Shown here: positions 1 to 315 of the stretch, piece by piece
How the letters are laid out: the number at the start of each line of letters is the position of its first letter
How positions within the stretch are numbered: the stretch's first letter is position 1
Source of the DNA: Escherichia coli
GTDB lineage: Bacteria > Pseudomonadota > Gammaproteobacteria > Enterobacterales > Enterobacteriaceae
NCBI RefSeq assembly: GCF_003334335.1
Contig: NZ_QOWQ01000221.1
Direction: 5' to 3' (one strand)
Length of the DNA: 315 nucleotides
Made by a program: the position numbers and the translations under genes
Notes under the pieces: generated by a model
Database searches by the model: none
The model's input: the letters and a program-made list of their open reading frames with translations, nothing else
What the model was told of the DNA's origin: nothing

Positions 1-315
1 TCTACTTCCTCTTCACCGACAAGGATGGCGAAAAATACGGTCGCGCAAACAAACTTTCTGGTCTGGATAAGGCGCTGGCTGCCGGGGCAACTGAAATCAC
101 GAAAGAAGAATATTTTGCCCGCAAAAACGGCACATACACAGGTTCACAACAAAATACTGATGCATCTGACACGACCGCACAACCAGACCTGGTAAAAGTT
201 ACCGCTGACGAAGTAAACAAAATTATGCAGGCAGCCAGTATCAGCCAGCCTGACGCCGATAAGTTGCTTGCTGCCTCTCGCGGAGAATTTGTTGCAGGGA
301 TTAGCGACCCGAATG
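1..315 (+). CDS. Internal fragment of a protein-coding gene, partial at both ends (codons begin at position 3; 104 complete codons, 3..314). Product: hypothetical soluble protein, function undetermined.
   Basis: Seen in sequence: the frame starting at position 3 has no stop codon across all 104 codons. About 43 of 104 codons begin with G (hand count: GCN/GAN/GGN/GTN), the periodicity expected of a true sense frame. Codon choice fits enterobacterial usage (ctg, ccg, gcg, cgc, aaa, gaa, acc, ggt), with no aga/agg/ata/cga/cta. The translation has a normal soluble-protein composition. Positions 1-2 (tc) and 315 (g) cannot complete a stop codon, so the ORF necessarily runs beyond both window edges. 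The only in-frame ATG (225-227) has no Shine-Dalgarno-like sequence upstream and is read as an internal Met. Product identity not recognised from memory; no homology search was possible. Confidence 0.8.

Follow-up and report, generated by a model that had tools for sequence, protein, structure and literature searches.

The stretch of DNA analysed here (the window, 315 nt from Escherichia coli) lies within the coding sequence of a prophage exonuclease. Frame 3 of the plus strand is open over all 315 nt and reads 104 residues (nt 3–314, + strand), corresponding to residues 391–494 of an 823-aa protein, such that window residue n is protein residue n+390. This assignment is based on the open frame and on 100% DNA identity to an annotated CDS (product ‘exonuclease’, WP_021565031.1, L001:4833–7304, NZ_CP060083.1). 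Matches to the window are present in 4047 of the 5426 complete E. coli genomes, with many of the prophage copies 100% identical, and several lambdoid phages match it at 87–96% DNA identity. A 72-aa ORF on the minus strand (nt 2–220) was rejected as spurious, since the plus-strand frame has homologues and flanks that are under strong purifying selection. At L001, dicB and a DUF1482 gene are found upstream of the exonuclease gene, and xis and int, adjoining ompW, directly downstream. No recT gene is adjacent to the exonuclease gene there, and the same xis/int neighbourhood, also lacking an adjacent recT, is observed in Tritos and at loci L012 and L013.

The sole Pfam-A match within the protein is a C-terminal Rv2179c-like DEDDh 3′–5′ exonuclease domain (aa 641–813, E = 2.7e-60), to which newer precomputed Pfam matches on the exact protein add YdfE_N and YdfE_C. 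The sole PDB sequence match (8kel, a 227-aa exodeoxyribonuclease) falls on the C-terminal domain, and the NCBIfam exoVIII/RecE model NF007259 matches aa 246–626 only, at 284.9 bits versus a cut-off of 1269. A CxxC...CxxC zinc ribbon is found at aa 551–565. The architecture of the gene is YdfE_N and YdfE_C, followed by a RecE-like central region and the C-terminal Rv2179c-like DEDDh nuclease. Literature searches yielded no study of this protein and, on the RecE central region, nothing beyond ‘unknown function’.

In the window-identical allele, the ExoI (DLET) and ExoIII (HNALDDA) motifs of the DEDDh domain are present and the ExoII Asp is replaced by Glu (GNGANFENTIL). This Glu, at aa 746 (L001:7068–7070), occupies a position that is Asp in 14/14 other distinct homologues checked (GNGxxFDxxxL) and the replacement may alter or abolish nuclease activity. 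The PPompW copies in the phage collection, including Stx2a-converting phage records (L007:2370–4837), carry a 4-nt deletion at window nt ∼229–232, so that the gene is annotated as frameshifted, i.e. as a pseudogene, in those prophages.

The 5′ part of the window (nt 3–137, + strand) encodes most of a conserved ∼50-aa mini-domain (aa 385–435), which begins 6 codons before the window does. When aa 246–640 were searched exhaustively against one representative per 50%-identity cluster of the protein collection, 162 relatives were found, and 16 long proteins among them carry this stretch. Word-indexed protein searches gave almost only short E. coli gene fragments, and the diversity was obtained from the representative search together with tblastn against phages. 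The consensus is ERxGPFY..G.K.GRANK..GLxKALAxGAxEI(S/T)KEEYxARKNGT(Y/F), with 12 columns invariant in the 16 diverse proteins (R386, G388, P389, F390, Y391, R404, N406, K407, G418, E421, I422 and K431). AF2 prediction on aa 383–437 with the 16-protein alignment (mean pLDDT 91.9, pTM 0.72) yields a β-hairpin (390–396, 399–405), a helix (408–416), a strand (420–422) and a second helix (424–432), and AFDB models of homologues share this fold (TMq 0.82–0.98). Nothing outside the mini-domain family matches at E < 1 in a structure search, and Pfam and PDB profile searches with the mini-domain are empty; there is a structural resemblance to RRM-like and split β-α-β folds, confined to this upstream mini-domain. 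These models indicate that the mini-domain is a small, compact, unannotated folded unit that is predicted to fold independently. The upstream sequence that an earlier note on this DNA had taken for an Ala-rich amphipathic segment instead provides two helices and a strand of this compact ββαβα unit.

The segment on which that note had focused (nt 129–188, + strand; aa 433–452, or residues 43–62 of the fragment read from the window) overlaps the end of the mini-domain. The peptide encoded by nt 129–188 is exactly as the note had quoted it, the flanking peptides are likewise present as written, and the reported dominance of Thr, Ser, Gln, Asn, Asp and Gly is borne out, with 17 of the 20 residues being S/T/Q/N/D/G/P. 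This is the maximum of any 20-residue window in the protein and a count that shuffles of the protein reach with P = 0.014. The accompanying statement that aliphatic residues are missing is correct for I, L, V and M, and holds overall only if two Ala are left uncounted. The run without I/L/V/M/F/W/C spans 24 residues (aa 429–452), a length that is unremarkable alone (P = 0.17). The protein contains three hydrophobic-free runs of at least 20 residues (P = 0.015), so the segment is one among several polar stretches, and its composition signal is modest on its own.

Full-length AF2 modelling (80-sequence alignment, mean pLDDT 58.8) gives coil by DSSP for aa 433–457 and a pLDDT below 50 over aa 438–456, in agreement with the disorder that structure prediction had been expected to reveal; the only confident parts are aa 241–345 (pLDDT 90–97) and the exonuclease domain (aa 641–820). 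Constraint is also relaxed in this part of the protein. Across 22 distinct close relatives, mean identity to the query falls from 0.915 over aa 385–435 to 0.556 over aa 436–452, and is 0.773 over aa 453–473 and 0.849 over aa 474–501. Nei–Gojobori counts between the window's allele and the Qin/Tritos allele give a dN/dS of 0.02 for the mini-domain (13 synonymous and 1 nonsynonymous differences) and of 0.53 for aa 436–453 (6.5 synonymous and 13.5 nonsynonymous), the latter value resting on 18 codons and ∼20 differences between two allele classes. For the motif at aa 474–501, described below, dN/dS is 0.04.

The actual variable spacer, which is polar, predicted to be disordered and under relaxed constraint, therefore corresponds to nt 138–191 (+ strand; aa 436–453) and only in part to the segment as originally drawn. 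The core of that segment is indeed variable, but GTY (aa 433–435) is the conserved tail of the upstream module and Q450-P451 is conserved. Judged from the alignments, the spacer would comprise about aa 436–453, with a freely variable core of about aa 436–449 together with aa 452–453. Its alleles are of two main types, GTY(S/T)GSQQNT(G/D)ASDTTAQP.. and GTYTGLPQNVDTAEDSEQPEP.., and the length is a constant 20 residues among E. coli alleles. In more distant relatives, the distance from the module to the next motif ranges from 16 to 87 aa, filled by unrelated sequence with a hydrophobic fraction of 0.04–0.22. The comparison of homologues that the earlier note had proposed thus shows a spacer varying in sequence and length between conserved flanks, and conservation within a compact fold applies to GTY only.

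Downstream of the spacer, full-length AF2 places low-confidence helices at aa 458–467 and 475–481, and pLDDT is below 50 for most of aa 500–636. A 21-residue stretch on this side is common to close relatives only. A RecE-family motif, (D/E)A(D/N)xxLAAxRGE(F/Y)VxGISDPxDPKW(V/I), starts within the window (nt 252–314, + strand) and runs past its 3′ end (aa 474–501); it is conserved in Rac-SA53 RecE, Shigella phage 75/02, Gifsy-2 and a Klebsiella phage. This side does not form a second folded domain; there are two short low-confidence helices and the RecE-family motif in a mostly low-confidence region of ∼200 residues. The linker interpretation is apt insofar as the core of the segment is predicted to be unstructured and varies more among close relatives than the rest of the region does, but not as regards the flanks, which are not two equivalent Ala-rich segments. 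What the segment provides is the first spacer in a beads-on-a-string tether.

The 3′ edge of the spacer coincides with a mosaic (recombination) joint (nt 188–192, without strand). Homology to the window begins only at nt 191/192 in about one in ten matching E. coli records and in several phages, which implies such a joint. The intact 812-aa gene of one such E. coli genome (L012) shares 87–100% identity with the query beyond aa 453 and only 7–33% before it, where it has a Rac/Gifsy-like N-terminal part without the mini-domain, and phage vB_EcoM-606R7 (L004) has the same joint. In the annotation of this phage, the exonuclease gene (L004:2727–5170) is split into two ORFs of 306 and 455 aa. The shorter, N-terminal one is of the same size as K-12 YdfE, which suggests that K-12 YdfE is a truncated remnant of the exonuclease.

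Exactly at the joint begins a nearly invariant DNA block (nt 192–268, + strand; aa 454–479) that includes the predicted helix at aa 458–467 (nt 204–233); dS is 0 over aa 454–473 versus 0.42–0.82 in the flanks. Recent recombinational spread is the simplest reading of this invariance, and the block could be a patch that recombination has spread of late, or a homology ‘linker’ through which modules are exchanged. An RNA or regulatory role for the window and for nt 192–268 is not supported: neither has an Rfam match at E ≤ 1, the fold z-scores (−0.77 and −0.12) reveal no unusual RNA fold, and the window contains no promoter-like or terminator-like sites.

Taken together, it is highly likely that this modular prophage exonuclease, which is of the RecE/YdfE kind, contains a short flexible spacer at about aa 436–453 and that the segment forms its polar core. 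The coding frame, the composition, the predicted disorder, the relaxed constraint, the length variation between conserved flanks and the mosaic joint all enter into this reading. The spacer would be tolerant of change and could therefore be a site where diverged lambdoid prophages join gene halves without harm to the protein.

The joint also invites a stronger interpretation, in which the segment is essentially a recombination scar, its unusual composition and variability being those of filler at the joint between exchangeable gene halves, with any linker function secondary. At nt 191/192 homology breaks off sharply in L012, L004 and around one in ten matching E. coli records, and the nearly invariant nt 192–268 block could be the homology patch for the exchange. 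However, the joint sits at the border of the segment and not inside it, and relatives that have no sign of a joint at nt 191/192 also have polar, hydrophobic-poor spacers after the mini-domain, which argues for selection for a spacer as such. A scar is moreover compatible with a linker rather than exclusive of it, and we regard an explanation of the segment by a scar in the first place as unlikely.

Alternatively, the segment could be a functional short linear motif, for example one at which a partner binds or the protein is modified, rather than a passive spacer. The length of 20 residues, fixed among E. coli alleles that fall into two main sequence types, is consistent with a length requirement or a weak functional role, and in neighbouring parts of the region short conserved motifs are strung like beads. 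The 3′ end of the flagged segment may be functional, since Q450-P451 is conserved together with the (V/I)KV after it, and both are similar to the ‘PE(V/L)xK’ lead-in ahead of the GxGxFS(I/V)xGL motif in relatives. Against this, the two E. coli allele classes disagree at most positions of the core (aa 436–449), with the dN/dS of 0.53 given above; the segment has no counterpart in the 50%-identity-cluster representatives, where sequence and length are unrelated; and the intact L012 gene either lacks it or has other sequence in its place. We therefore find a linear motif improbable as the explanation of the segment as a whole. It is very improbable that the segment belongs to a compact fold missed by AF2, packed for example against the mini-domain or the helical YdfE_C domain. 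The overall quality of the full-length model is low, and with its mixed alignment even the mini-domain has a pLDDT of only 42–68, so that low pLDDT there does not always mean disorder. The mini-domain attains pLDDT 92, however, when no residue after aa 437 is included, and the segment has no hydrophobic residues to bury, is under relaxed constraint and is deleted or replaced in intact relatives.

The flexible spacer thus remains the preferred reading, and it suggests how this part of the protein may work. The spacer would tether the mini-domain (aa 385–435) to a mostly unstructured downstream stretch in which short conserved elements follow one another, namely the helix at aa 458–467, the RecE-family motif at aa 474–501 and the zinc ribbon at aa 551–565, and which leads to the DEDDh domain at aa 641–813. 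It would have no sequence-specific role, selection presumably keeping its polar, hydrophobic-free character and permitting substitutions and changes in length. Such a spacer would be physically flexible and may serve as a tether that brings the modules and the nuclease together on DNA or on partner proteins.

The modularity of the protein, proposed earlier from this fragment, is well supported by its relatives. Pfam matches among 80 aligned relatives are to Exonuc_VIII (43), DUF3799, the RecE nuclease (23), Rv2179c-like (19) and RecT (1). In their domain map, two N-terminal types, the helical domain, the motif and a range of C-terminal effectors are combined in many ways, with the mini-domain and the zinc ribbon each present in some proteins only. 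In P0217, for instance, the mini-domain is combined with a RecE-type nuclease, and recT follows the gene. Four other mini-domain carriers (P0171, P0164, P0174 and P0213) end in a domain of ∼270 aa with the pattern IWxxVMRTDPRFTK...GTSINxEYMxMRATExFGPxGxxWG. This domain has only a faint Pfam Rad52_Rad22 hint (E = 0.079), is labelled only ‘exonuclease’ by PHROGs and has no PDB match; it is possibly an annealase fused to a RecE-like scaffold. A further variant is a 682-aa ‘exodeoxyribonuclease VIII’ of the Shigella phage 75/02 Stx (L008:2049–4097), which has a RecE-like N-terminal part, the helical domain, the motif and the zinc ribbon, and for which the domain map contains no nuclease domain. 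Its gene is followed by gam, recT and exo genes, and the protein fits the ‘RecE-2’ class (PMC12315714).

The spacer alone matters little, as the modules of a mosaic prophage protein can be expected to have polar spacers between them. Its position is of more consequence, in that the window maps to the unannotated middle of RecE/YdfE-type proteins, a large non-nuclease region of unknown function (PMC11611040), and in that the same scaffold bears nucleases of opposite polarity. One wider reading, which we put forward tentatively, is that the mini-domain and the motif are uncharacterised interaction modules (for DNA ends, the host replisome or SSB, or an annealase) that enterobacterial prophages mix with at least three C-terminal effectors, with the spacers and the conserved block as built-in recombination joints. 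The effectors in such a scheme would be the DEDDh 3′–5′ exonuclease, the RecE PD-(D/E)XK 5′–3′ exonuclease and the ∼270-aa domain with its faint Rad52 hint. The boundaries of the mini-domain are useful for constructs that probe the non-nuclease part of RecE-like proteins, for example to ask why full-length RecE favours linear–linear recombination.

Among known systems, Rac RecE (exodeoxyribonuclease VIII) can be compared over its N-terminal and central region, upstream of the nuclease domain (residues 564–866). It shares with our protein the helical domain (query aa ∼262–345), the motif, the zinc ribbon and an acidic tail, with 42% identity between Rac-SA53 RecE and the query over aa 262–626, and its gene is likewise found where the early-left operon ends, adjoining xis/int. 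The function of the RecE N-terminal region is unknown, and the region is dispensable for basic recombineering (PMC11611040). Rac-SA53 RecE is without the mini-domain (aa 385–435), in place of which acidic/polar filler aligns, and it has no equivalent of the spacer. The C-terminal nucleases also differ, being DEDDh 3′–5′ (Rv2179c-like) in our protein and PD-(D/E)XK 5′–3′ in RecE, and the query has no match to the C-terminal 300 aa of Rac RecE (DUF3799/PDB 3H4R type). Membership of the RecE family fails on three counts, namely the curated model score, the nuclease type and the recT neighbour.

The other close parallel is with YdfE and the Qin-type prophage exonucleases, whose domain set (YdfE_N PF27430, YdfE_C PF27432 and Rv2179c-like PF16473) is identical. 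The Qin-position gene in L013 encodes 825 aa and has the same mini-domain, spacer length and motif as the query, and the Qin-type context of dicB, ydfD/DUF1482, exonuclease, xis and int is the same as well. The window's allele differs from this type in the sequence of the spacer, which in the Qin/Tritos allele reads GLPQNVDTAEDSEQPEPI, and in having Glu in place of the conserved ExoII Asp. By its domain set the protein is a YdfE-type prophage DEDDh exonuclease with a predicted 3′–5′ activity; DnaQ-like 3′–5′ nucleases are described for lambdoid Rec modules (PMC12315714).

Generic disordered linkers and the module boundaries of lambdoid phages are likewise polar, of low pLDDT, fast-evolving, variable in length and located at a recombination joint, and apart from its fixed length among E. 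coli alleles the spacer has nothing that sets it apart from them. Polar, variable spacers are an already known kind of feature where modules meet in mosaic lambdoid genes; the only points that are mildly new are the unannotated mini-domain and the shuffled architecture in which it is found.
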